NCBI GenBank assembly: GCA_963811105.1
Contig: CAWEPZ010000009.1
Span: forward strand, 1 to 64,000
DNA length: 64,000 nt
Source of the DNA: Candidatus Bathyarchaeota archaeon
GTDB lineage: Archaea > Thermoproteota > Bathyarchaeia > Bathyarchaeales > Bathycorpusculaceae
Reading direction: 5' to 3'
Part shown: positions 26,264 through 43,469 of the stretch, in pieces
Numbering within the stretch: position 1 is the stretch's first letter
Layout of the letters: every line of letters begins with the position of its first letter
Notes under the pieces: model-generated
The model's input: the letters and a program-made list of their open reading frames with translations, nothing else
What the model was told of the DNA's origin: nothing
Databases searched by the model: none
Translations under genes and position numbers: made by a program

Positions 26264-26441
26264 TAATTCTTCAACTCCTTAATCGTGAGTCTAGGCGTTT
26301 TTTCTCTTAAGAGTATCGATCACATTGTTAGTGTTGGACTCCCTTTATCTAAAATGGGCTTCGAGCTTTTTCGAGAAAATTTTGTTTTTCAAAGAGTTGA
26401 GATTGTTATTGACATCATAGCCTTGTACGTTCACAAGTTGA

Positions 26442-26666
26442 TTGAGGGGTAACTTGTTGGAGAGAAAAGAGGCGATAGCTCTTTTAGCTGAATTAGGTAC
26501 ATTTCAACTTGTTAGTCCTGACTTTGTTATTCTTGAACAAGGAAACATAGGTAATTATCAACTGAAAATTAGAGGTAATTACAGCTTCAAAGACGTAGTA
26601 ACGTTTCTAAAAAATAGGTTCTGTTCAGAAGAAATCAATAATTACTTAATTATTTTTAAGCCGTAG
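26442..26666 (+). CDS. Small hypothetical protein
   Basis: ORF with LERKEAIALLAEL...YQLKIRG...YLIIFKP; the true start is probably a few codons downstream. Confidence 0.55.
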   Translation: MRGNLLERKEAIALLAELGTFQLVSPDFVILEQGNIGNYQLKIRGNYSFKDVVTFLKNRFCSEEINNYLIIFKP

Positions 26667-27191
26667 AAAACTATTGTTAAACGTTTTGTGTGCTCTAAAA
26701 ATTGCAGACTTACCAAGTCATTTAGTTTTTAGAAGTTCATCCATCAGCGTAAGTAAGAAATATCCTTGTTCTTTATCTAACTTGGTACATGATAGACCAT
26801 GAAACAAGTTATAGACTTCGACACCATATTTCTCTTTGAGTTGTTTCCCATTTTGTTCAATAATCTCGGTGCTTGAATTTTTAATCATTAAAGACCCTCA
26901 CTTCTTCTATTTTACGATAGCAAATTTAAGATTTGTTGCCTTCTCAAATATAAGTTATTGAAACCCAATTTGGTATAGAGAAAGCCTCAAGTTTTGCAGA
27001 GTATTTTGTTTCGGTGCTACTCTGAATTAAATCAATAATCCATTCAGAAAATTCTTCTTTTATCTGTTTGTAGAAATATTCTTCTTTGCTTTTTTCAATT
27101 GTAACAGTGGAATACAAAAGTTTTAGAAATGAGGAAGAGTTTTAGTCCTCTAAGCAATGTAACGACAATGCATTCTTGTGCTCCAAAACTG

Positions 27192-28334
27192 TTAGTACCG
27201 TTCTGGCTCTTTCTCAACAAGCCCCTTTAGTTTAGTTAGGGTTTCCTGCATCGATTCCCGTTTCGATGCGCCTCCATCCCTGAATGTTACTCTTGAATAG
27301 ATTTGAGTAAATACTATTCGCGTTTTGCGCCCTTCTTCAAAGGGTTCAAAATCAAATGTTGTGTCAGTTGTGAAGGCTCCAGAAGAGTAGTAATGAACTT
27401 TCTTTGGCGGATCAAAAGGTTGCACAATTGTCGAGAAACCACCATCTTCTAAATTCATTCTGCCGCCAACTTTCCAATCTACAGATTTAAAGCTGAAGCC
27501 TATCCAGTCTTTCCAGCGTTCAATTTGTATAAAGAATCGCCAAACGGTTTCAGGGGAACGTGCGACTATAATTTGCTCAGACATTCCTCCTACGGGTTGG
27601 GGCAAGTCGGGTATTATTAAGGATTTATCAAGATTTTCAAAATAGGCTGGATTAGGGTGCTTAAAATAATGAATGCCATATACTTTTCTTTGGTCATAAG
27701 ACCAGAAGTTCATCTCTTCATCTTTCCCGCTTCTTAAATCCTCTAAAACCACTATTTGTCTAAGGATTTTTACAGGACCCTCTAACTCTCTTGAATTAAA
27801 ATATTTATCCTTGAAACCCACAACTTTCCACCACCACCCTTCACTCCACCCCTTTTCATGAGAAATAGGTCTCATGTCAAACCATGTTCGAATTACATCG
27901 CCTTCTTTTAGATCTGAAGAAGAAAAAACCTCTATGAAAGACTCGCTTTCGTTGAAAGTCTCATCCAGCGGAGGAACCCATTTTGCAGTCCTAACGGTAT
28001 CCAGATAAGTGTGATCGACAGTGGTATCAAAGCCGTATATGTTTTGTTTGCTTGCAATTAGAACATTCTTGCCTTTACTTGTTAATTTGAAATAAGTGGT
28101 TTTTTTGAACAGCCCTTTTTTCTCAAAGGTCGTCCACAAGCTTCCATCAAGGTGATTCAGATGGTCAATTTGGATAGGTACAGCGATACCTTTCACTATT
28201 AGCATTTGCTGCAACGTTGCTTGCTCTATGGGTTCACTGCTTCCATAATATGATTTTCTGGTTCCATCGATTGTTGTGAGTATCTCCAAGCATATATTGC
28301 ATTCTAATAAAGCAAATTCATCCATCCAAATCAC
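27192..28334 (-). CDS. Hypothetical protein with C-terminal SRPBCC-like domain
   Basis: C-terminal IIVARSPETVWRFF...WKDW...WKVGG...TRIVFTQ...LTKLKGLVE. Confidence 0.65.
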   Translation of the reverse strand: MIWMDEFALLECNICLEILTTIDGTRKSYYGSSEPIEQATLQQMLIVKGIAVPIQIDHLNHLDGSLWTTFEKKGLFKKTTYFKLTSKGKNVLIASKQNIYGFDTTVDHTYLDTVRTAKWVPPLDETFNESESFIEVFSSSDLKEGDVIRTWFDMRPISHEKGWSEGWWWKVVGFKDKYFNSRELEGPVKILRQIVVLEDLRSGKDEEMNFWSYDQRKVYGIHYFKHPNPAYFENLDKSLIIPDLPQPVGGMSEQIIVARSPETVWRFFIQIERWKDWIGFSFKSVDWKVGGRMNLEDGGFSTIVQPFDPPKKVHYYSSGAFTTDTTFDFEPFEEGRKTRIVFTQIYSRVTFRDGGASKRESMQETLTKLKGLVEKEPERY

Positions 28335-28378
28335 AATCCTTAGTATCTCTGCCTTTAGAATATAAAGTGAGTCATCCG

Positions 28379-28609
28379 TTACGACCTTGGAATGGTTGTT
28401 TTCCCTTTTCCGTAAACTTCGACAGCACCCACTTGTCTGAAAATATTTAGGTTGTCAGTGACGTTCCAGTACTCCGCTAGTTTGCCGTTCACGATGCGAT
28501 AGATATCTACAGCTTTTGATGTTATCTTTTTTCCAGTTGGATTTAACCCCATAAATTCGCCTTTATGAGTTCCAGTGTAAATAAGGAGAACCCAAACTGC
28601 AAACATCAA
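28379..28609 (-). pseudogene. Truncated SnoaL-like ester cyclase
   Basis: TGTHKGEFMGLNPTGKKI...VDIYRIVNGKLAEYW; N-terminal half missing. Confidence 0.75.
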
Positions 28610-28847
28610 TTCGCTGGAACCACATGGAGCATCAAAGCGAAATGTTGGAATGTAACGGTTAATAATATGACTGATTTTAAAAATCTAAAAGATGATATAG
28701 AAAGATGGAATCAAAAAGAGCGATTTATAGCACCATATTAGATTTGATTCAATTAATCAATCTGCTCATGTGCTTTACCTTCAAGTTTGTGTAAAAATAT
28801 TGTTAAGATTTATATATGATAAAAAAAACGATAGTGGTTGGTAAAAG

Positions 28848-29363
28848 TTGATCATAATGAAAGAACTCAAACCCATAGACTACAAAATACTGTTTGAATT
28901 AATGAAGGATTCTCACAGGAGCGATAGGCAACTAGCAAAATCTCTTGGTGTCTCCCAACCTACAGTAACCCGAAGAAGAGCCATGCTTGAAGAAAACTTC
29001 ATCGAAGGATACACTGTTATTCCAAAATTTGGTCAAATCGGTTTTGAAATGGCCGCTTTAACTTTCCTAAAAAGTAAACTTAAATTTAAAACAGGCGAGG
29101 AAAAAACAGACGCTTTAAAGAAGATGCGCAACTGGTATATGAAGCAGCCCAACGTTATTCTAGTTTTAGACGGACGAGGAATGGGTTGGGATGCCGTCTG
29201 TATTTCACTACACGAAAACTTTGCTAATTTCGCCGATTTCATAAGGGCGCATGATTCAGAACTATCTGAATGGGTCCTTGAAAGCCAAACATTCCATTCT
29301 GACTTGAAAGCCGGAATAATAATCAAACCATTCCACCTAAAATATCTAGCATCACCAGAATAG
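28848..29363 (+). CDS. Lrp/AsnC family transcriptional regulator
   Basis: DYKILFELMKDSHRSDRQLAKSLGVSQPTVTRRR HTH. Confidence 0.92.
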   Translation: MIIMKELKPIDYKILFELMKDSHRSDRQLAKSLGVSQPTVTRRRAMLEENFIEGYTVIPKFGQIGFEMAALTFLKSKLKFKTGEEKTDALKKMRNWYMKQPNVILVLDGRGMGWDAVCISLHENFANFADFIRAHDSELSEWVLESQTFHSDLKAGIIIKPFHLKYLASPE

Positions 29364-29812
29364 ACTCCATATCGACTGGATAGGCTTAATCTCCAAGGAA
29401 GATGAGCTCTTCTTTCTTTATTGCTAAATTTGTTATAAGCGTTTGCTACGACATAGAGAACTGATATTTATTGATGAAAATTCCAGACAAGAAGCCATTT
29501 GAGAAGGACTAACCACCTTTTGACTGAAATCTGTTTAATAAGCATCTTCTTAGCTAAGAAACTAAAAAACTGGCTGCCAAAAAATCATTTGTGCTTTATC
29601 TTCTGTTTATTTTTTTGAGCAGTCTCTTTTTCGGAAGTTTTGGCTTTTTCGTTCTTTCTGCATCAACTGCCAATCCAATCTACCCATATTGCAATAGTTG
29701 TTAATTCGATATAAGGTTTATCACAGATTTTAACTGCGGTTTGTTCGATTGCATATGTTTTCTAAATTTGATCTTTTGCGTCAGAATATTTCGGCTGAAG
29801 ATTAATTTTGTT

Positions 29813-29948
29813 GTGTTGGAGGACTGGTTTTGTTTGTTGGCTACTCATAGCTATCCGTCAACGAGGAGAAAGGAGAAGGCTTCGAAAACGGAAAAACTGT
29901 ATTGGCTTGAGTGATCTCGCCTTCAACTTAAACCAGTCCTCCAATCAC
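29813..29948. ncRNA. Candidate structured non-coding element (ncRNA or MITE)
   Basis: Perfect 15-bp inverted repeat TTGGAGGACTGGTTT (29816) / AAACCAGTCCTCCAA (29930) enclosing smaller stems; TATA-like TTTTAAAT about 25 nt upstream on the minus strand. Confidence 0.4.
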
Positions 29949-30019
29949 TAACAAGACTTAAGATATTATGAAGCATTTAAAAGCCTTATGAATTAAATAT
30001 AAGACTTAGAAATACTAAA

Positions 30020-30583
30020 TCAGCTAAAAGCTAAAGTGCCTTCCAAAATATTCTGTTCAGAAACATCAAGCTGCTTAGATAGCGAAGCCTTAAGAAATGC
30101 TGAAAACTTCGGAAGAGCACCATTATAAGTTATGATTTGGTTACCCTTCAGTGCGTCAACATGGAAGACTTTCCCGTCTTCTTTATAGCTGAACGAAATA
30201 GTTTGCGCATGAAAAGCTAAAGTTTGAAAATCCTCCCACTGATTACAATTCAAAATCACAGAAGGACCACCTTGACCAACTGTTATTTTTGAAGGTGCTG
30301 ATTGATCTTGAGGTGCTTGGTCCCATATCAAAGTTGGTACTACTTCTTTTTGTGCATTTGATAAGACACTAATTAGGTTTGTTACTTCTTTTTGCAGATT
30401 GTTTATTTTTCCTTCAATTTTTTCCATTTTATCGTTTAATGCTCCGGTATCACTAAACTGTTCGGTAACTGTTGCTAAATCGTTAATTAATTTGTCTAAG
30501 TCTCTTTCATGCTCTTTAAGCACATTTACAATAAAATCTAGTGCCTCTAAGGCATCATCTCTTGTTTGCAGATTCTTCGCCAT
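30020..30583 (-). CDS. Hypothetical protein with N-terminal coiled coil
   Basis: 187 aa; DALEALDFIVNVLKEHERDLDKLI heptads; GAGGGGG SD. Confidence 0.75.
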   Translation of the reverse strand: MAKNLQTRDDALEALDFIVNVLKEHERDLDKLINDLATVTEQFSDTGALNDKMEKIEGKINNLQKEVTNLISVLSNAQKEVVPTLIWDQAPQDQSAPSKITVGQGGPSVILNCNQWEDFQTLAFHAQTISFSYKEDGKVFHVDALKGNQIITYNGALPKFSAFLKASLSKQLDVSEQNILEGTLAFS

Positions 30584-31006
30584 ATTTATGCCCCCTCAAT
30601 ATCTGACACATCAATACATGCAATAAATAAAGTTAACGAATCTCTAGATAGTATCTTTGTAATAGCATAATAATACTTATTATGAGTTTACAAGTTAAAA
30701 CTATGACGCTTTAGGCATCATTTTGCGCCGTTTTTCTTCGCTCTTCGCGTCTAAGGGGCAATTTGAGTTTTTGTGTTAGCGAAGGCATAGAATATTAACC
30801 CGATGTCGTCAATGTGGCCTTACATCAAATGCTATTGCATATACAGACAATTATCAGACCATTTATTGCAAAAGGCAAGCCGCATTTTTCATGAAATTGC
30901 TCAATGATATGACACTTGACATTCTTTACTGACAACAATCAACAAAAGAACTTTTAAAGATCATTTATCTATCTATAGACATGATTTTAAGTATCAATTT
31001 AATAGA

Positions 31007-31294
31007 CTAATTAGGAACCCATATGCACTTTATCGCTTTATAATCGCAAGTTACCTGGCATGGAGTATTATTGGTCTCAGGCTTGCAAGAAGAGCAAGTG
31101 TACTTTATCTTTTTCCTGTGCTCCTCTCTAACCGAAGCAACAATTTTGTCGTTAAGGTCAACAAATACGGTTTCTATCTGAAGCGCTGATTCTGGACACT
31201 GTTTAACGCATTTGCCACATCCGTCACATTTCTCAGTGTCAATCGTTATGTAATACTCGCCTGAACCATCACTGTAGCCATAATAAGTTATAAT
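31007..31294 (-). CDS. 4Fe-4S ferredoxin (BzdM-like), apparent non-canonical ATT start (not in ORF track)
   Basis: IITYYGYSDGSGEYYITIDTEKCDGCGKCVKQCP...YTCSSCKP...PCQVTCDYKAI; no in-frame ATG/GTG/TTG between the upstream TGA and the Cys motifs. Confidence 0.85.
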   Translation of the reverse strand: MITYYGYSDGSGEYYITIDTEKCDGCGKCVKQCPESALQIETVFVDLNDKIVASVREEHRKKIKYTCSSCKPETNNTPCQVTCDYKAIKCIWVPN

Positions 31295-31314
31295 AGACTT
31301 CGAGCACTCCTTCG

Positions 31315-32220
31315 CTAAGTTTTGTGCTCTTTTTCATATAGAGCTTTCGCAAACAACGCTGCTCCAAATGCGCCAGCCGCCATTGGGTCTAAGCCTCTTT
31401 CCTTCCACTTTGGCATTGGTAAACACTTAACGCCTAGAATAACTTCTATCCTGCTGGCAATGCCTATGTTTTTTGATTGTCCTCCAGTAATAACGAGTTC
31501 TTTTTGCAATCCAACCCTGTTAATCAAATTGGCCATTCGAACTGCCATTGCTCGCGTATATGCAGCCAAAACCTTCTCTTTTGACCAACCCTTACGCAAA
31601 AGCCCCATCGCTTCAGTCTTCGCAAACGCCACACATGTGCAGCTTACTGGCTCAGGCTCCTCATCAACCTTTAACGATATTACACCGATATCTTCAATAG
31701 GAATTTTTAGCAAATCGGCAAAAACTTCCATGCCTCTGCCGGTTCCTGCTGCGCATTTGTCATTCATTAGAAAAGAGACAACTCGTCCTGTTTCATCGAT
31801 GCTGATTGCTTTTATGTCTTGTCCGCCGACGTCAAGCACCGTGCGGACGCTTGGTCCCCAAATGTAATTGGCGCCTTTTGCATGGCAGGCTATTTCTGTT
31901 ATGGCTTTATTTGCCATTGGAACGTTAACACGTCCATAACCTGTGCCAACAGTGTATTTCAAGTCATTTACTTTAAGTCCAGTTCCTTCAAGAGCCCAAT
32001 CTAAAGCTTTTGTAGCGCTCTCAGGACTGTTGGACCCTGTTCTTGTTACTACCCAAGAATAGACTTCTCCATTGATCATTATGGCAGCCTTAGATCCAAC
32101 AGATCCAACATCAACGCCTGCCGTAATTATATCCTTGTTAGTCCATTTCATCCCTGGAACAATTCTATGGTATTCCTGCCACCGCCAATATTCAATGCAA
32201 AGGGTGCTTGGTTCCTTCAT
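31315..32220 (-). CDS. ASKHA ATPase activator, benzoyl-CoA reductase BzdQ/BcrA-like
   Basis: EYWRWQE, GVDVGSVGSK, GTGYGRVNVP, ITEIACHAKGA, DVGGQDIK, MNDKCAAGTGRGME, CVAFA. Confidence 0.9.
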   Translation of the reverse strand: MKEPSTLCIEYWRWQEYHRIVPGMKWTNKDIITAGVDVGSVGSKAAIMINGEVYSWVVTRTGSNSPESATKALDWALEGTGLKVNDLKYTVGTGYGRVNVPMANKAITEIACHAKGANYIWGPSVRTVLDVGGQDIKAISIDETGRVVSFLMNDKCAAGTGRGMEVFADLLKIPIEDIGVISLKVDEEPEPVSCTCVAFAKTEAMGLLRKGWSKEKVLAAYTRAMAVRMANLINRVGLQKELVITGGQSKNIGIASRIEVILGVKCLPMPKWKERGLDPMAAGAFGAALFAKALYEKEHKT

Positions 32221-33002
32221 TTTTGAACCCCTTTTGCTCTGTTAGATCCAATGATTGCTGCACCTAAAGCACCCGCAAACTCGGGGTACTCAGGTATCAA
32301 TACGGTGACATTCAACTTTCTGTTCAATGATGCAACAAAACCCACATCTTTAGCAACACCGCCCATTAGCACTACATCAGGGTTAACTCCTAACCTATGT
32401 ACCATTGAAGAAATTCGGTCAGCCATAGCATCGAAAACTGCTCGTGCAATTTCAGCTTTAGACTCCTGCCTGTGAATTAATGAAACAACGTCGGATTCAC
32501 CGAAAATCACGCATGAAGCGTTTATGGGACTTGCCCTTTCCGCCTCAAGAGACAGAGGCCCCATCTCTTCCAAGTTAACCTCTAAGGCCCTTGCCATAGC
32601 TTCGATAAATGTTCCTGCTCCAGCAGCACATCGTTCGTTGACAACAAAGTCAACCATAATTCCTTTTTCGTCACATTTAACCGCGCGTGCTTCTTCAGCG
32701 CCCACATCAATTATGGTTCTGGCGCTTCTAAAAAAGTAAATTGCTGCCTTAGCATCCGCCCCCATCATGCTTACTGTGCTGTTGGCGTACGGTGCCATTT
32801 CCATAGCCGTACCCGTTGCGACAAAATAGTCGACATCACTTAGCTTTATGTTTGCTCCTTGTAGGACTGCGTCCACTGCTTGTTTAGCTGCTTCAGTCGG
32901 GTCAAACCCTGAGAAAACCTGAGCTCTTGATAAAACATCGTTGTCTTTTAGAATTACAGCTTTTATTCTTTGAGTCCCCAAATCCATTCCAACAGTAATC
33001 AT
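32217..33002 (-). CDS. ASKHA ATPase activator, benzoyl-CoA reductase BzdP/BcrD-like
   Basis: GMDLGT, DVGAEEARA, NERCAAGAGTFIEAMARAL, CVIFGESDVVSLIH. Confidence 0.9.
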   Translation of the reverse strand: MITVGMDLGTQRIKAVILKDNDVLSRAQVFSGFDPTEAAKQAVDAVLQGANIKLSDVDYFVATGTAMEMAPYANSTVSMMGADAKAAIYFFRSARTIIDVGAEEARAVKCDEKGIMVDFVVNERCAAGAGTFIEAMARALEVNLEEMGPLSLEAERASPINASCVIFGESDVVSLIHRQESKAEIARAVFDAMADRISSMVHRLGVNPDVVLMGGVAKDVGFVASLNRKLNVTVLIPEYPEFAGALGAAIIGSNRAKGVQK

Positions 33003-33014
33003 GGACTCACCCTT

Positions 33015-34358
33015 TTAAATTTCGATTCTTGAAGTTAGCATTTCAAGGAACGCTTCAACGCGAGTTTTCATTTGACCAACATCTTCTCTAGTGTACTCGG
33101 TATCAAGATAGTAGACAGGGACATTGATTTTGTCAAGGGCTTTCTTGATGCTGGTGTATTCCATTGCGTAGAGCATGCAGCCACGGACAACATAGTAAAT
33201 GACGCCTTGAACATTCCATTCTTTAACCTTGTTTAATAGCCAGTTAATCCTGTCTTCATTGCCATCCTTGGAAGTAAAGCAAGGGCAGGTGGAAGCCATC
33301 AAATACCGGTCTCCAATAGCCCTAAGCATATCATCCATTGACCATTCATCAACTCCGACGGGATCATTTAGTATTCTTTCGCCTGAACACAATTCATCTG
33401 CAACAATAATGCCCTTTGGGTTAGCTTCTTCAACTAGATTGGGTAGCTTCCAGTTATCAGGCCAAAACATTGGTGTTCCTGTGATTAATACACGAGGCGT
33501 ATCTGGTGGACAAACCCATTCTTTGCGTTCTACTCGCTTATCGAGCTCACTGCATAAAGCTTCCGTTTTCTCAGTCCACCTCTTCTTATCATCCCACAAA
33601 TATGCTTGATTGACAAGCATAGCATCTCTACCCATAATCACCGGTGGCCCCTTACGCAAATCTTGCAGGCGGCGGAATGCTTTTGTTGCCCTTTGAGTTT
33701 GCTCAATAGCAGCTTTCAGATTATTACGAGTAATCTTGTGGCCAGTAAACTGTTCAATCTGTACTTTCATGTTCTTTATTTCATCGTTCCAGAAGCGAAG
33801 TGAATGCGTGGAATCTTTAACTCTTGGCGTATTCATGTTCCAAACAGTCTTGTAATCACTCAATATTTCGCTTAGTTTGGTCATCCCATCGCATGTTAGA
33901 ACGCTAATCAAAGCATCGCTTTGTTCAAGAAAAGGTGAGAGTTCAATCATTTTTGCACCAATGGTCGAACGAATAACTGGACAAACCTCCACTGGGACCA
34001 CTCTGTCTCCCAGTTTTGAAGTATCATACCAGCCAGAACTTACTCTTACCGGTATAGCATCAGCTGCTAAAATTAACTCTGTAGGTGCGAACAAGCACAT
34101 GTAACCAATAACTTTCTTTCCTTTTTCCTTCTCAGCCTGAATTTCTTGTTGGCGACTACCAAACAAGTTTGCCATCTTATCGAAATACTCCATTGCTTTG
34201 GGCCTGTTGGGGTCAGCTTTCTTCATGCGTTCGATGTTCTCAGCAATTACTTTCTGAGAGGCGGTTTTGATAGTGTTCCTAAGCTCTTCCATTTCTTTCT
34301 TGGGCATTTCGCTTGTATACTTTTTTTCTACTTTTTCGTTCTTCATTCTTACCTTCAC
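33015..34358 (-). CDS. Single-chain 2-hydroxyacyl-CoA dehydratase-family protein, double-cubane cluster protein (DCCP)-like
   Basis: GYMCLFAPTELI, CPVIRS, TCDG, PRVLITG, ELCSGER, CPCF, GCMLYAME, GQMKTRVEAFLEM. Confidence 0.85.
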   Translation of the reverse strand: MKVRMKNEKVEKKYTSEMPKKEMEELRNTIKTASQKVIAENIERMKKADPNRPKAMEYFDKMANLFGSRQQEIQAEKEKGKKVIGYMCLFAPTELILAADAIPVRVSSGWYDTSKLGDRVVPVEVCPVIRSTIGAKMIELSPFLEQSDALISVLTCDGMTKLSEILSDYKTVWNMNTPRVKDSTHSLRFWNDEIKNMKVQIEQFTGHKITRNNLKAAIEQTQRATKAFRRLQDLRKGPPVIMGRDAMLVNQAYLWDDKKRWTEKTEALCSELDKRVERKEWVCPPDTPRVLITGTPMFWPDNWKLPNLVEEANPKGIIVADELCSGERILNDPVGVDEWSMDDMLRAIGDRYLMASTCPCFTSKDGNEDRINWLLNKVKEWNVQGVIYYVVRGCMLYAMEYTSIKKALDKINVPVYYLDTEYTREDVGQMKTRVEAFLEMLTSRIEI

Positions 34359-35350
34359 TCACTTGATGACGGTTCTAACCAGTTTCTTGATTTGAACAAA
34401 GTTTTATTTGCAAACTTAACCTTCAAAGTGTCTTCATAAGGGCACATTTCAGCACAACGGGCGCAAACCACGCACATTGAAGTGTTTATTTTTCCTCCTT
34501 TTTGCTCGTAGACCTCTGTAACTTGTAATGGGCAAACTCTACTGCACACGCCGCATTTAGTGCATTTTTCTTCATCTTTTTCAATATAAAACAGCGGTGC
34601 CCACTTAAAACCATTAAATCTGTTCACGATCGCTAATGAGATGCCAGTGGGGCAGAAGCGGCACCAAAATCGCCTTGTAAAGAATGAGCCTGCCAATGTC
34701 AAACCGATAAACATAAGAGCTATTATTTGACCAAGGTTTTGACCAAAGTAAGCGATTATATCTTGGACGTATTGGTAGGTGAAATTAATTTGGAACAATG
34801 CTATAGCACCCCCCGTCCATGGTACAATATTTGGAATCAATGGGTCAATTAGAACGCTGTATGGTCGGAAAGGACCACCCAAAACTTTTGCCAAAATTAT
34901 GGCGGTGTTGAAATCTGTGGGTGGCTGAATTAACCATAAATAGATTGGAATAAGCAAGAAAAAAAGAGCAATTGCATACCTTGATTTGTGGAGACTCTTG
35001 TTGAGCTTTTCAGGTAGGCTTCTATGACGTATTTTGAATGCTTTCCTTAGAAGCGTAACCACATCCAAGAGAAAAGCGAATGGACAAACCCAACCGCAAT
35101 ACATTCGACCTAAAACAAGAGTTACTGCAAGAATAATTATCAATACATAGAGAAGTGGGACTGTAAAGGTAAAAAAATAAAATAGTGCTGCAAATGATAC
35201 CGCCTGAATTACTAGCCTTACGTAAGTAACTCTTGCAGTCAAGTTCTTCTTCCATATTAGAATGGCAGCTATCCCTGCTACCCCTAGGCCCACAAGCACT
35301 ATAGTTTTAAGTATGTTGCCGATTAGTTCCCAGTCCATTCTTTTCGCCAA
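34355..35350 (-). CDS. NapH/MauN-like membrane 4Fe-4S protein
   Basis: GRMYCGWVCP, RFWCRFCPTG, CTKCGVCSRVCP, CVVCARCAEMCP; several TMs. Confidence 0.88.
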   Translation of the reverse strand: MAKRMDWELIGNILKTIVLVGLGVAGIAAILIWKKNLTARVTYVRLVIQAVSFAALFYFFTFTVPLLYVLIIILAVTLVLGRMYCGWVCPFAFLLDVVTLLRKAFKIRHRSLPEKLNKSLHKSRYAIALFFLLIPIYLWLIQPPTDFNTAIILAKVLGGPFRPYSVLIDPLIPNIVPWTGGAIALFQINFTYQYVQDIIAYFGQNLGQIIALMFIGLTLAGSFFTRRFWCRFCPTGISLAIVNRFNGFKWAPLFYIEKDEEKCTKCGVCSRVCPLQVTEVYEQKGGKINTSMCVVCARCAEMCPYEDTLKVKFANKTLFKSRNWLEPSSSE

Positions 35351-35365
35351 TGTTCAACTTTTGAA

Positions 35366-37591
35366 TTACTGAATTATTCTCGTGTTGTAGTCTCTAAGGT
35401 ATGCTAAGTGTGCCGCATCGTACGGGTAAGTTTCTGTCGCAGGATATGGGAAGCCGCTCATATCCATGAAAGGCAAGGGATTCACTGTGAAAGTAAATCC
35501 GTAGCCCCATTGTCCTGGTGGATCCTTAAACCAGCATGCGACAATAAGGAAGTAGTCTCTCACCATGCCAGGTGCTGGTGCTGAGAGATTAGTTGTTGGG
35601 AATAGAAGTTCTACCTGGTCGCCTTGGCGTCCAATCGCAAACATGTCATCTGCATTTTGAATGAGCGGTGTTACGTCACCGTATCTTGTGAAGTTGCCTG
35701 TAGAGTTAGTTGCGAAATCCCACCATGGGCTAAGGGTTGCAGTGGGGCTAATTTTTTGAACTTTTATGGTTTGTTGAGTCGTTGTGTCAATTCCGATATA
35801 GTCGTATGTTACGTTCCAGGAGTTGGTGATTCTTATTTGAAAGTCTGTAATGCCCTTGGGAAATAGTCCTGTTAAGTCAACAACAAAAGTTCTAGGGTTA
35901 GAGTCTGAAGGTACTGGTATTTGTCTATCCGCGGGGGCTCGTACCCAACTACCGTCTAAAGTTTTGATTTCCATATAAGTTGGCGGAGTAACCTGAGTGC
36001 CATTTGGTAAAAGTCCTTGGGCAACTGCTGTTCGGAGCGTGTCTATCCAGTTGTAATACGCCTCATATGATCCCCAATCAACTATTCCAGTCATTACTAG
36101 CTTAATTTGCTGTGCAGAAGATAGATCTCCTAAATCAAGCGTCAATTGATTTATTGTTGGGTTGTTATAAGATGGACTGAGATTCACGTTATTTCCAGGA
36201 GTATAAACGCCGTCTGACTGTAAGATTTTGGAGAGAACATTTTGGCCTTTTTCGTTGGTCGCTGAAACTGGCGATAACGTATTGGTTTTGTTTACTGTAT
36301 AAATTTGTTCATTTAGGCCCTTGTAAAGATAATTGGTCATGGTTGTATAGGCATCGGTGCCTGCTGGGTGGTCTACTACAATCATGTACGCTGCATCTAA
36401 GTAGAAGAGTTCATCCCATTTTTGAGAAAGAGTCATGTCATAGTAGCTATCGCCATTAATTGTCTTAGTTGCTATTACATTGCTATCAAGCTTAACGTAA
36501 TCCCACGGGTTTCCTCCATTGAACACGACTTCGCCATTTGAATTTATATAGCCCGTATATCCTAGCCAGCCAGAGTTTGAAACATCAGTGACATACGAGT
36601 TCCCTGTTCCATTCCATACGTAAAGTGATGGGCAAGAGGCATAACCACTGATTGTTACATAGGATGCAACAAGTATTCTGTAATTGTCTAGGGTAAACGT
36701 CTTTGAAGGGCTCTCTGTACCATCATTCCAATGTGTAAACTGAACCACTCCAGTTCCAACATCATAAGGACTGGGCACGGTTACTGTATACTCTCCAACA
36801 GGTACCAACTCTCTATACGGAGTCCCATATGAATGTCCATTTAGGGTAAACGGTAAGGGTTTGCCGACACCACCATTCCTAGTAATAAATAACGTATGAT
36901 ACCCAGTTTTTACAACTTCAAATGATCCTGTAAGAGTGTTTATTTTGACGTTATGGTAACCTTCTGACGTTGCATTAACAGTAAATACAATTTCCTCACT
37001 TGCTTGAGCATCTAGCTGGATAAATTGCGTTTGCACTATCGTGTTATCAACGGTTAATTTAATCGTAATCTTATCGCTTTCCGGCGAGGAATTTTTTGCA
37101 GTGGCAGTTATGTTAACAGGTTGGTCGACCCAAACCTCAAATGGTTCAGATACTAAATTTGACAATATAATTTTGCTTGATTCAGGAGGGGCTGGTTTAA
37201 TTGTAAAGTTTCCAACCAAATTGTCAACTGAAACGTTATAGTTGCCTTCCGCAGTTTCGATGTCAGTGAACTGAACAGTCTGTGATGAGTTGCCGGCAAG
37301 TGTTATGTTTTCTGCATCTCTGATTATGTCATTAATTCTAAAGTTTACCGTTTTATTGCCTTCTAAATCGCCGGTATTAGTGACATTAACCGATATTAGC
37401 ACTGCCTCGCCTGGATACACCTCAAGAGGATCAATGATTAGGTCTTTTAGAGCAAATTTAGCTGGCCTTGAAGCACCCACTATCATACCTTGGCTCGTAA
37501 GAAAAATAAAAGCTCCTGCAGCAGCACCGACAATGATAACATCGATTAAGAGAATTGCCTTCAGTTTAACCATCGCTGAACGCGACAACAT
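35366..37591 (-). CDS. Membrane-anchored surface protein with two CARDB-like Ig domains and a C-terminal domain seen in ASPIC/UnbV-type proteins
   Basis: N-terminal TM; ISVNVTNTGDLEG; SCPSLYVWNG; FTRYGDVTPLI...DDMFAI...GD; PLPFMDMSGFPYP...YNTR. Confidence 0.75.
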   Translation of the reverse strand: MLSRSAMVKLKAILLIDVIIVGAAAGAFIFLTSQGMIVGASRPAKFALKDLIIDPLEVYPGEAVLISVNVTNTGDLEGNKTVNFRINDIIRDAENITLAGNSSQTVQFTDIETAEGNYNVSVDNLVGNFTIKPAPPESSKIILSNLVSEPFEVWVDQPVNITATAKNSSPESDKITIKLTVDNTIVQTQFIQLDAQASEEIVFTVNATSEGYHNVKINTLTGSFEVVKTGYHTLFITRNGGVGKPLPFTLNGHSYGTPYRELVPVGEYTVTVPSPYDVGTGVVQFTHWNDGTESPSKTFTLDNYRILVASYVTISGYASCPSLYVWNGTGNSYVTDVSNSGWLGYTGYINSNGEVVFNGGNPWDYVKLDSNVIATKTINGDSYYDMTLSQKWDELFYLDAAYMIVVDHPAGTDAYTTMTNYLYKGLNEQIYTVNKTNTLSPVSATNEKGQNVLSKILQSDGVYTPGNNVNLSPSYNNPTINQLTLDLGDLSSAQQIKLVMTGIVDWGSYEAYYNWIDTLRTAVAQGLLPNGTQVTPPTYMEIKTLDGSWVRAPADRQIPVPSDSNPRTFVVDLTGLFPKGITDFQIRITNSWNVTYDYIGIDTTTQQTIKVQKISPTATLSPWWDFATNSTGNFTRYGDVTPLIQNADDMFAIGRQGDQVELLFPTTNLSAPAPGMVRDYFLIVACWFKDPPGQWGYGFTFTVNPLPFMDMSGFPYPATETYPYDAAHLAYLRDYNTRIIQ

Positions 37592-37733
37592 CCTAATTTA
37601 TGCTCTCCTCAACAGTTAACTGCATAGACTACTATATAATTTATGCGAACTAATTTTTTTTAGAGCGATTTTTTCAGCAAAGCAGAATTTTTTCTTTTGG
37701 TTAGAACAAGATAATCGTAGCAATAATTTTCCA

Positions 37734-39107
37734 TTATGAGCATTCTGGCTCTATATGGACGGTAACAACTGCATTTGCAAAGCGCTCCTTAGTTTCTTTC
37801 TCAACCTGTGAAGCAATACTGTGAGCTTTTTTGATTTGAATGTGCTTAGTAAAACAGCAGTCAATATTGATATAGCGTTTCCCATCGGCAGCATAAGTAA
37901 CTATTCGCTTAATCCGCAGATGCTCACCTATACCTTTGCTAACTTCATTAACAACTTTTCGAAGTTGAGCCTCATCAACCTCAGAAGATGGAACCCCCCC
38001 TACACTTGAAGGCTCAACATGAACAGTGATGTTCGCTAGCGGCTTAATCTCCACATTCATTCTTCCTTCAATAGTTTCTGCAATTTTATGTGCTTCTTCA
38101 ACTGATAATTCAGGGTCAACGTAGGCGTGCAAAGTAATGTAGAATTTACCACCTGTATAAACAGTAGAGATTTCATGGACCTCTTTAACGCCATCTACTG
38201 TCGCAAGTTTCTCTATCATCTGATCCATTTTTGCGTCTTTTTCAGAAGGCTCAATATGTGTTGTGGCGTCAACGTTACCCAGAGACTGTTTGAGGTCTGC
38301 TTCAATTTTGGATGCCAAGGAATGTGCTTCTTCCAAGCTCATGTGACTTGAAACTTGAATAGTTGTTTCTATGAAGATTTTGGAGCTTACTTTGCGAACT
38401 TTGAGATTTTCTGTTTTAACAACTCCTTCGTGTGAAAGGATGACTTTTTTGGTTTTTTGCACTAGTTCTCTTGACGCGGTGTCACTAAGTTCCAATATGC
38501 TGGTTCTAACAAGTTTGGAACTCAAATAACTAAGCATGATTCCAAGGAAAATTGATGCAAGAGCGTCGCCATAGAAAAAGCCCAAGGTTGCCAAGCCAAA
38601 GCCCAATAATGCAATCAAAGTTGAACTCAAATCTGCGATAGCGTCGTAGAGGCCAGCTTTCATTGAGGCACTTTGGATATGCTGGGTTTTTCTAAAAACA
38701 GTAACTCGTAATGAAGCAACGAACAGCGCATAACCGATTGCAATGAAACCTGCAACTTCTATCCCTTGAGCAATCTGCGAATGCTGCATCAATCTTGAAG
38801 CTGCTTCATAGAAAATCAAGAATGCCACAGCGATTAAAACTATTCCACCGATAAGTCCACCTATTGTTTCAAACTTTTCGTGTCCATATGTGTGTTCTTC
38901 GTCAGGAGGCTTAATTGAAGCACGAACCGCAAGAAACAACATGACCGTTGAGACTGCATCAAGCAAAGCGTGCAAGCCATCGCTGAGTATGGCTAAACTG
39001 TTAACAAATAAACCTACAGAAACCTCAACTATTACAACACTGAAGATCGCCACCGCTGAGATCTGTAATGCCTTTAGTTTGTATTTTCCTTCTGAAGCGG
39101 ATTGCAT
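37734..39107 (-). CDS. Cation diffusion facilitator (FieF-like) with three C-terminal dimerisation domains
   Basis: SLAILSDGLH, PPDEEHTYGHEKFE; three AH..A...H(I/V)EP repeats. Confidence 0.92.
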   Translation of the reverse strand: MQSASEGKYKLKALQISAVAIFSVVIVEVSVGLFVNSLAILSDGLHALLDAVSTVMLFLAVRASIKPPDEEHTYGHEKFETIGGLIGGIVLIAVAFLIFYEAASRLMQHSQIAQGIEVAGFIAIGYALFVASLRVTVFRKTQHIQSASMKAGLYDAIADLSSTLIALLGFGLATLGFFYGDALASIFLGIMLSYLSSKLVRTSILELSDTASRELVQKTKKVILSHEGVVKTENLKVRKVSSKIFIETTIQVSSHMSLEEAHSLASKIEADLKQSLGNVDATTHIEPSEKDAKMDQMIEKLATVDGVKEVHEISTVYTGGKFYITLHAYVDPELSVEEAHKIAETIEGRMNVEIKPLANITVHVEPSSVGGVPSSEVDEAQLRKVVNEVSKGIGEHLRIKRIVTYAADGKRYINIDCCFTKHIQIKKAHSIASQVEKETKERFANAVVTVHIEPECS

Positions 39108-39393
39108 TGGATTTAATCTAAATATGCTCGTTTTAAGGGCGATTTAAGAATTGTGGGTTAAACTTAATTCTTTGTCATACTTTTATAAGAAAGCATGGTT
39201 CCTGGCTTTCAATTGAAATAGCTATAAAATTTAGGGGTACGGTTACTTGCTGCGTGTTTTCAAATTTTAGTCGGTTTCCTTAAACATTTTTGGCTCCTTA
39301 ACTTCCATTTATATTATTAGCGGTTGCTCCGCTACCGTTTTCCATATTTGTTTTTCTAAAAGTGCATGAACCGAGCGTTGAGAAATATAGTAT

Positions 39394-40248
39394 TTAATCA
39401 ATCGGTTCTTCAAGGATTACCGATAAAGTCCTTGCCCTTTTAGGTGGATATATGGTGGCTGCTTTGGAGTTATTCCAGGATCTGTCAAAGCTCTTTTGGA
39501 AGAACATTACCATTTTTTTGTCGTTTGTCCATAAAATGCATGGAAGTTCTGTCTCAGTTTTCTTTTGCAAGGTTATCCAAAGTTCATTTTGGTCAATAAC
39601 ATAGTAAGATAAAAGTTCATTTGTGTTGGCTATTTTTACTTCGAAATTGCGGTTTTTTGGGATGATGGGTGTAATAACTTTCATAACTTCATTTTTACTA
39701 GAGTTTTCTACGATCATGCGAGTTTTTACTTTTTTCGTTAGTTGCTCTAAATGACTACGTAAATTCTTTGTGATGGCTGTAATTAATTCAAGATTGACAA
39801 TTAAATCATATGAAAGATTAGCGCCTTCAAAAGTCATAGCCGCTCTGTTCTTTACTTGTTCATCGGTTATCAGAGGAATGAATAAATCTTCACAACGCGT
39901 TTTCTCTTTTGGCTGATGGTTCTCGATTTCTTCCGTTAGCTCTCTCAAGTTGTTTTCCAAATGAGAAATTTTTTTACATGTCTTTTCTTTTTCAGTTGCA
40001 ACCAAACGGCCTAATGCTTTTTGTATAGGGATCGCTCCGACCAAAGCTGGTTTGTCTATTGTTCTTGTGATTAAGCCTTTTTTTTCGAGCGTTGGAATTA
40101 TTTTGTAGATGTCTTGGCGATGTAGTTGACTGATTTTAGAAATTTCGCCGACTGTAATTGACCCATTCTGGACTACGCTCAGATATACTTTTGCCTGATT
40201 AATTGTAAAGCCAAACTCTGCTAATTTGGAAACCAAGTCTTCCTGCAT
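39394..40248 (-). CDS. TrmB-family transcriptional regulator
   Basis: LAEFGFTINQAKVYL...EISKISQLHRQDIYKII.TLEKKGLI wHTH plus PLD-like effector domain (YYVIDQNE...FDRSWNNS); ATG 40248 preferred over the track start 40344. Confidence 0.88.
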   Translation of the reverse strand: MQEDLVSKLAEFGFTINQAKVYLSVVQNGSITVGEISKISQLHRQDIYKIIPTLEKKGLITRTIDKPALVGAIPIQKALGRLVATEKEKTCKKISHLENNLRELTEEIENHQPKEKTRCEDLFIPLITDEQVKNRAAMTFEGANLSYDLIVNLELITAITKNLRSHLEQLTKKVKTRMIVENSSKNEVMKVITPIIPKNRNFEVKIANTNELLSYYVIDQNELWITLQKKTETELPCILWTNDKKMVMFFQKSFDRSWNNSKAATIYPPKRARTLSVILEEPID

Positions 40249-40380
40249 ATGCCCTACCAGCGTCTGATCTTTCCTCTCATGTTGAAATGCTTTAACCCTG
40301 CTACAAGAATTGCGCTTTTGGTAATAATACTTTCGATAGTCCACTTGATTTCAAGGTCAAAATGAACATTTATGGCACCT

Positions 40381-40417
40381 TGTCACAAGTGGCTACTTTC
40401 CACTCACAATTATAAGC
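40381..40417 (+). promoter_or_regulatory. Conserved operator plus TATA box of paralogue 1
   Basis: TGTCACAAGTGGCTACTTTCCAC-N6-TTATAAGC. Confidence 0.8.
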
Positions 40418-40514
40418 GCCAATAAGATATAATGTGCGCTTGGTAGGAGGGCTTAATGTTTCTTAAGAAGCTTTTGCCCTCCCACAAACAAAATTTCAGG
40501 AAAAGAAAAGAAAA

Positions 40515-43112
40515 ATGACAAACCTAAACAAAAATTTAATGAACACCTCATTTAATAGAACAAAGGCAATAACTGCAATCGTTTTGATACTACTGATGGC
40601 TTCTGCTGCTTTTATTGCACTAAAGCCAGTCAACGCTCAAGGCGTAACGGGGGACGTAGGTGGAACACCATCAACTTATGAATATTCTACTGCAAAACCA
40701 TCCAACGGCACTAGTATAACCTTTGGTGATCCCGACCTCAAAGCTTACCTCGCCATTTCACCTAACCCTGTAGGAGTTGGCCAAACCATTCTAGTTAACA
40801 TTTGGATGACGGTGGCTCCTGCGGCGGAACGACAACTTCAGCATTACACTGTCACATTTACGAGACCAGACGGAACAATAGACAAAATTGAGAATCTGAA
40901 GTCTTATGAAGCAGACGGAACATCCTGGTTCCAATACGTAGTTGACCAAGTTGGCACATGGCAAGCTGTATTTAGTTTCCCTGGGCAATTTTTCCCAGCA
41001 GGACGATACGCTAACGGTGTGCCAAACAGCACAGGTACGCAGAACTATGCTTATGATATGTACTATGAACCCGCTACTAGCCCAGTTACAAATCTTACTG
41101 TGCAGAGTGAACCTGTGATGTCTTGGTATTCTCCGTTGCCAACCGACTATTGGACTCGACCAATATCGATGAACAACAGAGAATGGAATGCGATTGCCGG
41201 AAACTTCCCATGGGATAAAATGGAGCTGTCTTCCTCAATGAACGGGAAGCAATCCTATTTGGGTCCATACATTACTGCGTCAAAGACGGCGCACGTAGTG
41301 TGGAAGAGACTGGACGCTTTTCCAACAGGCATTATCGGCGGTGAAGCAGGAAATTACGGCAACAAAGGCTCTGGCGACACTCCAAATGTAATCTTTGAGG
41401 GAAGATGCTACGACACTAGGACGGTAAGATGGTACAACGGGACGATGCTTAGCTGCGCTGTTTGCTACGACTTACGCACCGGAGAAATGTATTACATGAA
41501 TCCCACAGCTGCACCGTTCAATGGTTTGACGCCTACATGGATCGAATACACCAAAGGAACCAGCGCTGAAGTAGAGGGCGGTGGCGATGTCAACACTGTC
41601 ACGGCAAGTCTCAAATTGATTTCAGGCAACTTTATGTACGTTATCAACCCATCCACTGGAGCCATAACAAGCAACATAACGCTCGGTGGCTTGACAGCAA
41701 CAATCCGCCACGGCGACTGGGCATTAATGTTCCAGACAAACAACACAGCGCTATTCTCCGCAACCGCTCCCCTCAACACCACAGGCAGCGCCATAATCAA
41801 CTGGACCACACGCGGAACCAGCAACAACCCCCTGACTAGAATAACCAGCAACGTAACCAACGCTGAATTCAGATCCCTAGCGACTGGAGGAGTCGACCCA
41901 GAAGCAGGAACAAACATTGTTCAGACTAGATTCACAATTGGAAGCGTAGGCGGAGGACGCCTAGTAGGCTACAGTTTGGTAACAGGCAAATTGCTTTGGA
42001 ACAATTCGTATTCAGACAGCCCATTCAACCCAGGAACAAACTGTGCTGACGACGGAAAATACTTCTGTGTCTTTGAAAACGGGGTTGTTAGAGGCTTCGA
42101 CGCGTTTACTGGAAAAACACTATGGGAGACTCATACGGACTATCCTTGGGGTGAATTCTGGACATACTATGTTGCCTCAGGTCCTGTAGATCCTCGTTAT
42201 CCTAAAGCGGGCATATTCGTCGCAGACAGCTACGCTGGCACCTACGCTTTTAACTGGTCGACAGGCGCAATAGTCTGGCGCAGTTCTCACTTGGCACCCC
42301 CATTCGAAACTGGCTACAGCATCAACGGTACAGCGGGCACAAGCACCTATCCAGGCACCGGCACTCCAATCATTGCTGACGGGGTGGTATACATACAATC
42401 TAGCGAGCACACACAGACGGCACCATACGCCAGAGGCTACGGAACTTACTGCATCAACGCTACTACAGGAGAACTCATGTGGAAGTTAGACGAGCCCTGT
42501 GTCCTAGGAGCTGCAGCTGACGGCTACTCTATGGTAGGCGATCAATACAGCGGTTACATGTACGTCTTAGGCAAAAGCAAAAGCATGACAACAGTCGAAG
42601 CACCGCTGACCGCCATAAGCCAAGGACAAAGCATGATAATAAAAGGCACAGTTACTGACTTGTCTCCAGCTTCGCCGGGCGCAGCATGCGTTTCGGAAAA
42701 GTCGATGGGCGCATACATGAGCTATCTACATATGCAGTCCCAAATGCAAAACCTGCTACATCCTGACACAGTTACTGGGGTTCCAGTATCGATTGATGCT
42801 ATTGATCCAAACGGCAACTACATGCACATCGCAGACGTTACAAGTGACGTAAGCGGATCTTACAGCTACATGTGGAAACCTGACGCGGTAGGCAAATATG
42901 ATATTACTGCCGCATTCGTGGGAAGCCCATCTTACGGCAGCTCATTCGCAGAAACCGCAGTCGGCGTAACAGAAGCACCAGCAACATCAACACCAGTGCC
43001 AACACAGCAAGCAACAGTTCTACCACCATATGACATATACATCTTCGCAGCAGCCATAGCGATAATCATTGCAGTAGCCATCGCAACAGTGCTTATACTC
43101 CGAAAGAAATAA
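40515..43112 (+). CDS. PQQ-like beta-propeller surface protein, paralogue 1
   Basis: Signal peptide; PNPVGVGQ, DYWTRPI, TG..LW/TG.IVW blade repeats, SEHT; Thr/Pro linker, TM, RKK. Confidence 0.88.
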   Translation: MTNLNKNLMNTSFNRTKAITAIVLILLMASAAFIALKPVNAQGVTGDVGGTPSTYEYSTAKPSNGTSITFGDPDLKAYLAISPNPVGVGQTILVNIWMTVAPAAERQLQHYTVTFTRPDGTIDKIENLKSYEADGTSWFQYVVDQVGTWQAVFSFPGQFFPAGRYANGVPNSTGTQNYAYDMYYEPATSPVTNLTVQSEPVMSWYSPLPTDYWTRPISMNNREWNAIAGNFPWDKMELSSSMNGKQSYLGPYITASKTAHVVWKRLDAFPTGIIGGEAGNYGNKGSGDTPNVIFEGRCYDTRTVRWYNGTMLSCAVCYDLRTGEMYYMNPTAAPFNGLTPTWIEYTKGTSAEVEGGGDVNTVTASLKLISGNFMYVINPSTGAITSNITLGGLTATIRHGDWALMFQTNNTALFSATAPLNTTGSAIINWTTRGTSNNPLTRITSNVTNAEFRSLATGGVDPEAGTNIVQTRFTIGSVGGGRLVGYSLVTGKLLWNNSYSDSPFNPGTNCADDGKYFCVFENGVVRGFDAFTGKTLWETHTDYPWGEFWTYYVASGPVDPRYPKAGIFVADSYAGTYAFNWSTGAIVWRSSHLAPPFETGYSINGTAGTSTYPGTGTPIIADGVVYIQSSEHTQTAPYARGYGTYCINATTGELMWKLDEPCVLGAAADGYSMVGDQYSGYMYVLGKSKSMTTVEAPLTAISQGQSMIIKGTVTDLSPASPGAACVSEKSMGAYMSYLHMQSQMQNLLHPDTVTGVPVSIDAIDPNGNYMHIADVTSDVSGSYSYMWKPDAVGKYDITAAFVGSPSYGSSFAETAVGVTEAPATSTPVPTQQATVLPPYDIYIFAAAIAIIIAVAIATVLILRKK

Positions 43113-43134
43113 GCCGCAAAACCAAAACATCAAA

Positions 43135-43148
43135 CCCTTTCTTTTTTT
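43135..43148 (+). terminator. Oligo-T terminator
   Basis: CCCTTTCTTTTTTT after the stop; similar tracts follow paralogues 2 and 3. Confidence 0.6.
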
Positions 43149-43251
43149 AGAACAATTAGAACTATATGGGCTCTTACTGGGAAGCTTTTTTCATTGGTTC
43201 TTTTCTCTTTTTGGGGTCACGTCTCAAATTATAATAAAATTTAACTTTCTG

Positions 43252-43375
43252 CAGTTGTGTTGTCAGTGCTCCCTTTCCACAGTTGTGTTGTCAGTGCTCC
43301 CTTTCCACAGTTGTGTTGTCAGTGCCTTTCCACAGTTGTGTTGTCAGTGCCCACTTTCCACTAAGCTTTATAAGC
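43252..43375 (+). repeat. Four tandem copies (28/28/25/28 bp) of the operator, abutting the TATA box of paralogue 2
   Basis: CAGTTGTGTTGTCAGTGC(TC/CC)..TTTCCA at 43252, 43280, 43308, 43333, then C-N6-TTATAAGC. Confidence 0.93.
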
Positions 43376-43469
43376 ACACCAAACGCACTGTGTGGACCAT
43401 CGGGGGAGGCAATTCTCTTAATAGAAGACTTGTTATTCCTCGAAGAAATTAAACGGGAGAGAAAAAAAA

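Follow-up and report, generated by a model that had tools for sequence, protein, structure and literature searches.

The operon considered here occupies positions 31,007 to 37,591 of a 64,000-nucleotide stretch of DNA from a Candidatus Bathyarchaeota archaeon (contig CAWEPZ010000009.1; the whole stretch is called the window below). It belongs to a genome that is 96.65% complete, the source genome in what follows. Its six genes all lie on the minus strand, separated by 15, −4, 12, −4 and 20 bp, just as an earlier sequence-only reading had reported. In their order on that strand, they encode a CARDB surface protein (35366..37591, an open reading frame (ORF) of 741 residues), a NapH/MauN-like membrane protein (34355..35350, 331 residues), a double-cubane cluster protein of the long DCCP type (DCC; 33015..34358, 447 residues), two ASKHA subunits, namely the BzdP-type P (32217..33002, 261 residues) and the BzdQ-type ATPase subunit Q (31315..32220, 301 residues), and a BzdM-type ferredoxin (31007..31294, 95 residues, nine of them cysteines). 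The ferredoxin ORF requires an ATT start, with a Shine-Dalgarno-like stretch immediately upstream, and several orthologues carry a methionine at that position. The gene order is not due to chance, since all 59 orthologous loci with enough flank have P, Q and the ferredoxin behind the DCC gene. The operon is real and conserved, and it belongs to the double-cubane/benzoyl-CoA reductase (BCR) family.

A TATA-like box read from the sequence at 37633..37643 on the minus strand, 42–52 bp 5′ of the CARDB start, is the likely promoter of the operon. Twenty upstream regions were aligned; most have an AT-rich box at a comparable distance, no conserved operator was seen, and no Rfam families were found in window positions 25000–45000. 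Contigs from two soil sequencing runs cover parts of the operon, mostly at less than 90% likeness, and are uninformative on transcription.

The catalytic chain and its activator

Residues 49–441 of DCC align with the DCCP of Carboxydothermus hydrogenoformans (6ENO, about 40% identity) with an E value of 1e-82, compared with 3e-24 for BzdN, 4e-17 for HadC and 4e-16 for MbdN. The cysteine ligands C88, C126, C156, C324, C358 and C394 are invariant in 47 aligned rows, and the six-ligand motifs were detected in 61 of 63 distinct orthologues. The sequence-only reading was therefore right in seeing a single DCCP-type chain, but the "cysteine motifs of both halves" that it had recognized (these positions, with C358/C360 as the fifth) are simply the ordinary six-ligand signature of such a chain. 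DCC scores 342.5 bits on NF040772, below the curated cut-off of 350 that two of four relatives from the bacterial cassettes described below do pass, and 100.2 on TIGR03190 against a cut-off of 453.8. By analogy with 6ENO and 7YYL, a DCC homodimer would hold [8Fe-9S] clusters.

The chain differs in the non-ligand seventh cysteine (Cys94 in the 7-Cys motif of DCCP), whose position, placed by counting on the alignment with the C. hydrogenoformans protein, is Ser107 in the source DCC. Among the 63 distinct orthologues this column holds asparagine in 42, glycine in 12, serine in 8 and another residue in one, and never cysteine, which is present in 10 of 12 wider relatives. The seventh cysteine is likewise missing in class III DCCPs, but those are activator fusions (PMC7317905). 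Two relatives of DCC with a fused C-terminal activator-like domain were also met (P0126, 759 residues; P0142, 837 residues).

As first proposed, the chain has no partner subunit: it is the sole HGD-D gene of the source genome, in which BzdO, Oah and Dch have no match. A 2-hydroxyacyl-CoA dehydratase pair (HgdAB/HadBC), with three cysteines in each subunit, is not seen, the only HGD-D gene having six. Nor do the trees turn DCC into an ordinary BzdN, an outcome that had been foreseen as a possible refutation. In an IQ-TREE analysis of 43 rows, selected out of 126 with long branches and near-duplicates omitted, the archaeal orthologues form one clade (support 100/100) within a group of NapH-linked DCC proteins (98/98), two rows of which have no directly adjacent NapH; this group is separate from the canonical DCCPs (100/99) and from BzdN (100/100), and a constrained DCC+BzdN clade was rejected (p-AU 0.0005). 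The alignment scores, the trees and this AU test all reject the idea that DCC arose by joining the N and O halves or represents a stage in the evolution of BzdN. The same DCC clade also appears in records assigned to Patescibacteria, Pacearchaeota and Nanoarchaeia (L107, L132, L135), a surprising occurrence for reduced genomes.

The BzdP/Q- and BzdM-like character of the other core proteins is borne out by trees and motifs. In a FastTree of 111 rows, Q lies within the BzdQ clade (support 100), beside archaeal BzdQ proteins encoded in true bzd operons (92). In the same tree P falls among the BzdP rows, with which it has a GAEE-type motif in common, and the bacterial NapH cassettes have single activators that make up a group of their own (86). 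Q scores 347.8 on TIGR03192, for which the BzdQ cut-off is 380.2, a value that some orthologous Q proteins exceed, and all its ATPase and cluster motifs are intact. Both P and Q retain two cluster cysteines. In all 15 rows examined, P lacks the glutamate equivalent to E69 of the homodimeric DCCP activator, DCCP-R, as well as the arginine of the TGYGR motif, whereas true BzdP has an acidic residue and Arg/Lys at those positions in 13 of 13. In DCCP-R, substitution of E69 slows ATP hydrolysis about tenfold (PMC9351452). With the catalytic residues of P lost, ATP would likely be hydrolysed at Q only, leaving a single working ATPase site in PQ.

The ferredoxin is 39–50% identical to 18 ferredoxins from BzdPQ-linked loci. 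The simplest history suggested by these comparisons is that the archaeal lineage retained the DCC and NapH of the cassette and swapped its single activator for a BzdPQM module, whose donor was most likely an archaeal bzd operon, as the tree supports for Q. Some Bathyarchaeia do possess true bzdNOPQM clusters (L061, L177, L182). The BzdPQM motor looks portable and able to serve a homodimer, with one of its ATPase sites probably silenced. BzdPQ(M) modules without adjacent BzdN/O are also found in Desulfobacterota (L201:2411-11364, L202, L193, L195, L197, L198, L204), those of L201 and L202 standing beside what we take to be an AOR/BamB-like tungsten enzyme and genes resembling oah and dch. Many genus members (L051-L059, e.g., L051:9305-11728) have a second DCCP, of the canonical 7-Cys kind, with no adjoining activator and flanked by genes that are presumably DsrE-like and SelD-like. 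In three genomes bearing this paralogue, P and Q are the sole PF01869 proteins, and the paralogue may therefore share the PQ activator.

Conservation in archaea and a wider bacterial cassette

A DCC orthologue (E under 1e-150) is found in 33 of the 36 genus members, two of these copies having stops or frameshifts, and the three genomes without one are 56–82% complete. At an identity of at least 67%, DCC is present in 39 of 301 genomes of the class, all in one order, and the complete operon set also occurs in two genomes from another class; in these as in all genome counts below, kin are not independent. Close homologues (84–87%) are named Bathyarchaeia or Thermoproteota in NCBI, and Bathyarchaeum and Bathycorpusculum are among the named records in which this operon occurs.

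The conservation sample comprised 63 distinct loci, 59 of them with enough flank, and in these DCC-P-Q-Fd is invariant. Upstream of DCC the picture is more fluid: NapH is present in 45/59, a DsbD_2 gene in 43/59, CARDB in 34/59, all three in 24/59 and none in 4/59. At least one of the two membrane genes, NapH or DsbD_2, is retained in 55 of the 59 loci, which supports a membrane exit route, and CARDB is always accompanied by NapH (34/34). The six-gene neighbourhood put forward at the outset therefore stands in so far as the NapH and CARDB genes are co-conserved with the reductase genes, but it is not fixed, CARDB being absent from 25/59 loci and NapH from 14/59, with DsbD_2 as an extra. That DsbD_2 gene (PF13386) is the seventh gene of the operon in most relatives and has been lost from the source operon; the only copy left in the source genome lies on a different contig, facing a paralogue of NapH. 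DsbD_2 proteins keep a Cys-x3-Cys motif and most also have a Cys-Pro motif. In another Bathyarchaeia family, a DsbD_2-like gene directly precedes an HGD-D alpha/beta-like pair without activator (L095:8727-11652, L096:8246-11169).

The membrane protein matches PF12801, with about five helices predicted from hydropathy, a pair of Cys-Pro motifs and a domain for two [4Fe-4S] clusters. It is NapH-like only, scoring 75.4 on TIGR02163 (NapH) against a cut-off of 213; none of its 12 cysteines varies among 47 orthologues from archaea and bacteria. The source genome has four paralogues (C11:433170-434768, C11:765667-767630, C6:20284-22709 and C1:114524-115338, the last one split), which adjoin or are fused to secreted-looking proteins, and one of which faces the DsbD_2 gene. 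The surface protein (PF07705) has one N-terminal membrane helix by hydropathy, Ig-like domains of the CARDB type and, at the C-terminus, an unnamed domain of some 420 residues that has no Pfam match and carries an invariant Cys320 in the alignments. Its AF2 model is mostly beta (pLDDT 71.8), and a fold search with the whole model returned only generic multi-Ig matches with TM under 0.15. The C-terminal domain occurs in three copies in the source genome (window 35366-36650; C9:167127-169061; C11:689570-691510); it also occurs in giant multiheme cytochrome, NosD and ASPIC/UnbV proteins and in unnamed bacterial Atlas clusters (score 0.94). Around the operon, the window also holds a conserved 187-residue coiled-coil protein of no clear family (30020-30583), often found 3′ of the operon in the family, and tandem PQQ_2-type beta-propeller surface proteins (40515-43112 and 43470-46055) that have a large paralogue set in the source genome.

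The link with NapH is not an archaeal invention; it is a property of a DCC clade spread over several phyla. A profile built from 12 distant DCC relatives gave at least 546 candidates, of which 80 were kept, the cassette loci being drawn from the matches listed. In 24 Gram-negative loci, picked for having NapH before DCC, a TonB-dependent receptor is found in 17, a periplasmic K4/K13 protein in 20, DsbD_2 in 18 and one activator in 22, never two; contig ends and the ORF filter explain some of the misses. Several of these loci also have ExbBD/TonB genes. The K4/K13 proteins gave weak DUF4198 matches in the members scanned, DUF4198 being reported as metal-binding (PMC12663993). In Thermoplasmata, the cassette versions come after beta-propeller surface proteins. 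When 32 loci were scanned with Rfam, a cobalamin riboswitch was found upstream on the cassette strand in three, all of one subclade, and two of these adjoin CbiK or CbiZ/ChlI-like chelatase genes. Other cassette members neighbour FeoB, NosL, SCO1/SenC, MntP or PepSY_TM, and such varied neighbours mean that the cargo may differ by clade. Copper was considered as a cargo, given the SCO1/NosL neighbours at three bacterial loci, and set aside, nothing of the kind being found for the archaeal operon.

Possible functions of the operon

Our tentative proposal, which we hold at somewhat under an even chance, is that the operon encodes an ATP-driven, very-low-potential double-cubane reductase feeding a membrane module that reduces and frees chelated metal at the cell surface. 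In this proposal the metal freed would be cobalt or a corrinoid, possibly iron or nickel; the source genome has CbiD, CbiZ and CFeSP, and therefore needs cobalt. The proposal draws on the NapH-linked DCC clade, on the importers, riboswitches and metal-handling neighbours of the bacterial cassettes, and on CbiM, which is present in 31/39 operon-bearing genomes vs 10/36 others of the order. The scheme starts from the parts, motifs, gene order, trees and absence of partners that were seen, while the clusters, contacts, direction and cargo are what we infer. As in BCR and DCCP-R, the ferredoxin would reduce a [4Fe-4S] cluster bridging P and Q, and ATP hydrolysis, likely at Q only, would drive the electron into the [8Fe-9S] clusters of the DCC homodimer. 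DCC could then pass electrons to the NapH-like protein, as suggested by a gene order and overlap common to archaea and bacteria. Together with DsbD_2, which would perhaps provide a Cys-lined site or channel, the NapH-like protein would in turn reduce the chelated metal brought by the surface protein. The archaeal CARDB protein, as the outside catcher, would occupy the place of the Gram-negative TonB receptor and DUF4198-like protein.

Several observations weigh against this proposal. The archaeal operon itself offers no internal metal clue, with neither a riboswitch in the region scanned nor a conserved operator, and 29 of the 32 scanned cassette loci have no riboswitch either. A metal transporter of the CDF type with three ZT_dimer domains (window 37734-39107) lies upstream on the same strand, but it does so in only 19/59 loci. 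A replacement of the ECF permease CbiM by the operon is not seen in the genome counts. The four loci without both membrane genes still have DCC-P-Q-Fd, and ten more have DsbD_2 only; the core can therefore persist without the proposed exit route. In a FastTree of all 126 rows the support for the NapH-linked clade is only 80, with three NapH-linked rows outside it. To our knowledge, the only demonstrated activity of DCCP is the reduction of small molecules in the cytoplasm. Finally, NapH-like proteins are generally taken to carry electrons from the quinol side to respiratory enzymes (PMC8238504).

A bolder version, possible though we doubt it, would make the operon and the bacterial cassettes members of one class of ATP-driven "super-reducing" metal-acquisition machines, which would strip Co(III), Fe(III) or other metals from chelates whose stability defeats the known siderophore reductases; the Bathyarchaeia would have re-powered theirs with a half-active BzdPQ motor at the cost of one ATP per electron. 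Were this true, it would give a first physiological role to the homodimeric double-cubane proteins, whose natural role is described as an open question (PMC11971306, PMC7317905).

The strongest rival, although unlikely, is that DCC itself acts on a small cytoplasmic substrate, as class I DCCP does in vitro with acetylene, azide and hydrazine, the membrane and surface proteins importing the substrate or feeding electrons. The long N-terminal part, which closes the CoA channel in DCCP (PMC7317905), is kept here (the alignment with DCCP starts at residue 49), the core occurs without membrane genes in the four loci already mentioned, and TonB receptors carry organic cargo too. On the other hand, none of the 63 orthologues has the cysteine beside the cluster opening, the cassette neighbours are metal-handling genes, and a conserved downstream catabolic gene was not seen.

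Export of very-low-potential electrons for thiol, sulfoxide or humic chemistry at an extracellular acceptor or surface enzyme, rather than a role in uptake, is in our view quite improbable. NapH-like and DsbD-type proteins do move electrons across membranes (PMC8238504), CARDB is never seen apart from NapH, NapH paralogues of the source genome lie beside or are fused with secreted-looking proteins, and the CARDB C-terminal domain is fused in multiheme cytochromes. However, an ATP spent per exported electron is expensive for an energy-limited cell, CARDB is absent in 25 of the 59 loci, and the bacterial context is one of importers.

Still less probable is an ATP-dependent corrinoid reductase, taking Co(II) to Co(I) in place of the RACE/RamA activators or serving B12 synthesis. 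In its favour, RACo (PF14574) is found in only 3/39 operon-bearing genomes vs 160/262 others of the class sample, CFeSP is present in 36/39 operon-bearing genomes, one bacterial subclade has a B12 context, and the paper on the cultivated Bathyarchaeum tardum mentions no activating enzyme (PMC10477458). RACo, however, tracks the MtaC-type corrinoid proteins, from which 38/39 operon-bearing genomes are free at the threshold used; the near-exclusion is real, but it is explained by the missing MtaC-type proteins, making RACE replacement unlikely. Moreover, of the 15 family members that lack both the operon and RACo, 12 still have CFeSP, two genomes of another class bear the operon but have no CFeSP, and the membrane and surface genes would be left unexplained.

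The weakest candidate, a benzoyl-CoA reductase for aromatic-ring reduction, has in its favour the Bzd-type P, Q and ferredoxin (including the Q proteins above the BzdQ cut-off), the database labels BcrC/BadD/HgdB given to DCC and the double cubane also held by BzdN (PMC11971306), but it is strongly disfavoured, to the point of being very remote, by the single HGD-D gene, the rejected DCC+BzdN clade, the absence of BzdO from the source genome and 36/36 genus members, the presence of Oah in only 1/36, and a B. tardum that has no BcrB and is inhibited by benzoate (PMC10477458). In the source genome Had and BzdV have generic matches only (24–35%), and the two of 61 related genomes that carry BzdO do not have the DCC of the operon. 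Matches to "bcrA/C/D" in Bathyarchaeia are not evidence for aromatic-ring reduction: in the order sampled, the operon (39/87 genomes) is far commoner than true bzdO (2/61).

Comparison with known systems

The NapH-linked DCC clade offers a testable lead on role, through its fixed link to membrane proteins and its bacterial importers, some of them behind B12 riboswitches. A cultivated organism probably carries the operon, which opens the system to experiment: B. tardum was described with three adjacent "BcrACD" genes without BcrB, its supplement listing bcrC, bcrD and bcrA as WGM90206, 205 and 204 (PMC10477458). These follow the DCC-P-Q order, and from gene order and genus the cluster is probably this operon. 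Literature searches covering mainly openly available papers, short of the Fuchs and Haft supplements, found neither a DCC paired with a BzdPQ activator nor the bacterial cassette described, and the full-text literature search did not pair "double-cubane" with NapH-like or CcoG-type families.

CcoG-type metal reductases likewise combine a membrane Fe-S protein of the PF12801 family with a partner on the outside. The NapH-like extracytosolic electron-transfer systems are built in the same manner (PMC8238504), but the operon has no detected FMN-binding domain and is tied to an ATP-driven double-cubane protein. With the BZD-type system (BzdNOPQ and BzdM; PMC11971306), the operon shares the P-Q-M order, a double cubane as in BzdN, and P, Q and ferredoxin that are 48%, 62% and 51% identical to those of the archaeal L061. 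It differs by having no BzdO, BzdV, Dch or Oah, by a catalytic chain that is not BzdN, and by a P that has lost residues kept in every true BzdP compared.

The likeness to DCCP and DCCP-R of C. hydrogenoformans (6ENO, 7YYL; PMC7317905, PMC9351452; NF040772) extends to full-length homology, six ligands, a long N-terminus, a single catalytic gene and an adjacent ASKHA activator. The operon departs from it in its heterodimeric Bzd-type activator with a dedicated ferredoxin, where DCCP-R is homodimeric, and in a DCC of a separate clade that has no seventh cysteine and has membrane and surface partners. Nor does the source genome show the SelD that Haft and Gwadz associate with NF040772 proteins: its best SelD match reaches 79.7 bits against a cut-off of 125, and a selenium link is rejected. 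The bacterial cassette of TonB receptor, DUF4198-like protein, NapH, DCC, activator and DsbD_2 has NapH directly upstream of DCC and the same DsbD_2 cysteine pattern, and judging from the trees it shares one DCC clade with the archaeal operon, whose P is degenerate beyond BzdP. The cassette, however, relies on a single activator of its own clade and an outer-membrane importer, with no BzdM, whereas the archaeal operon has a CARDB surface protein.

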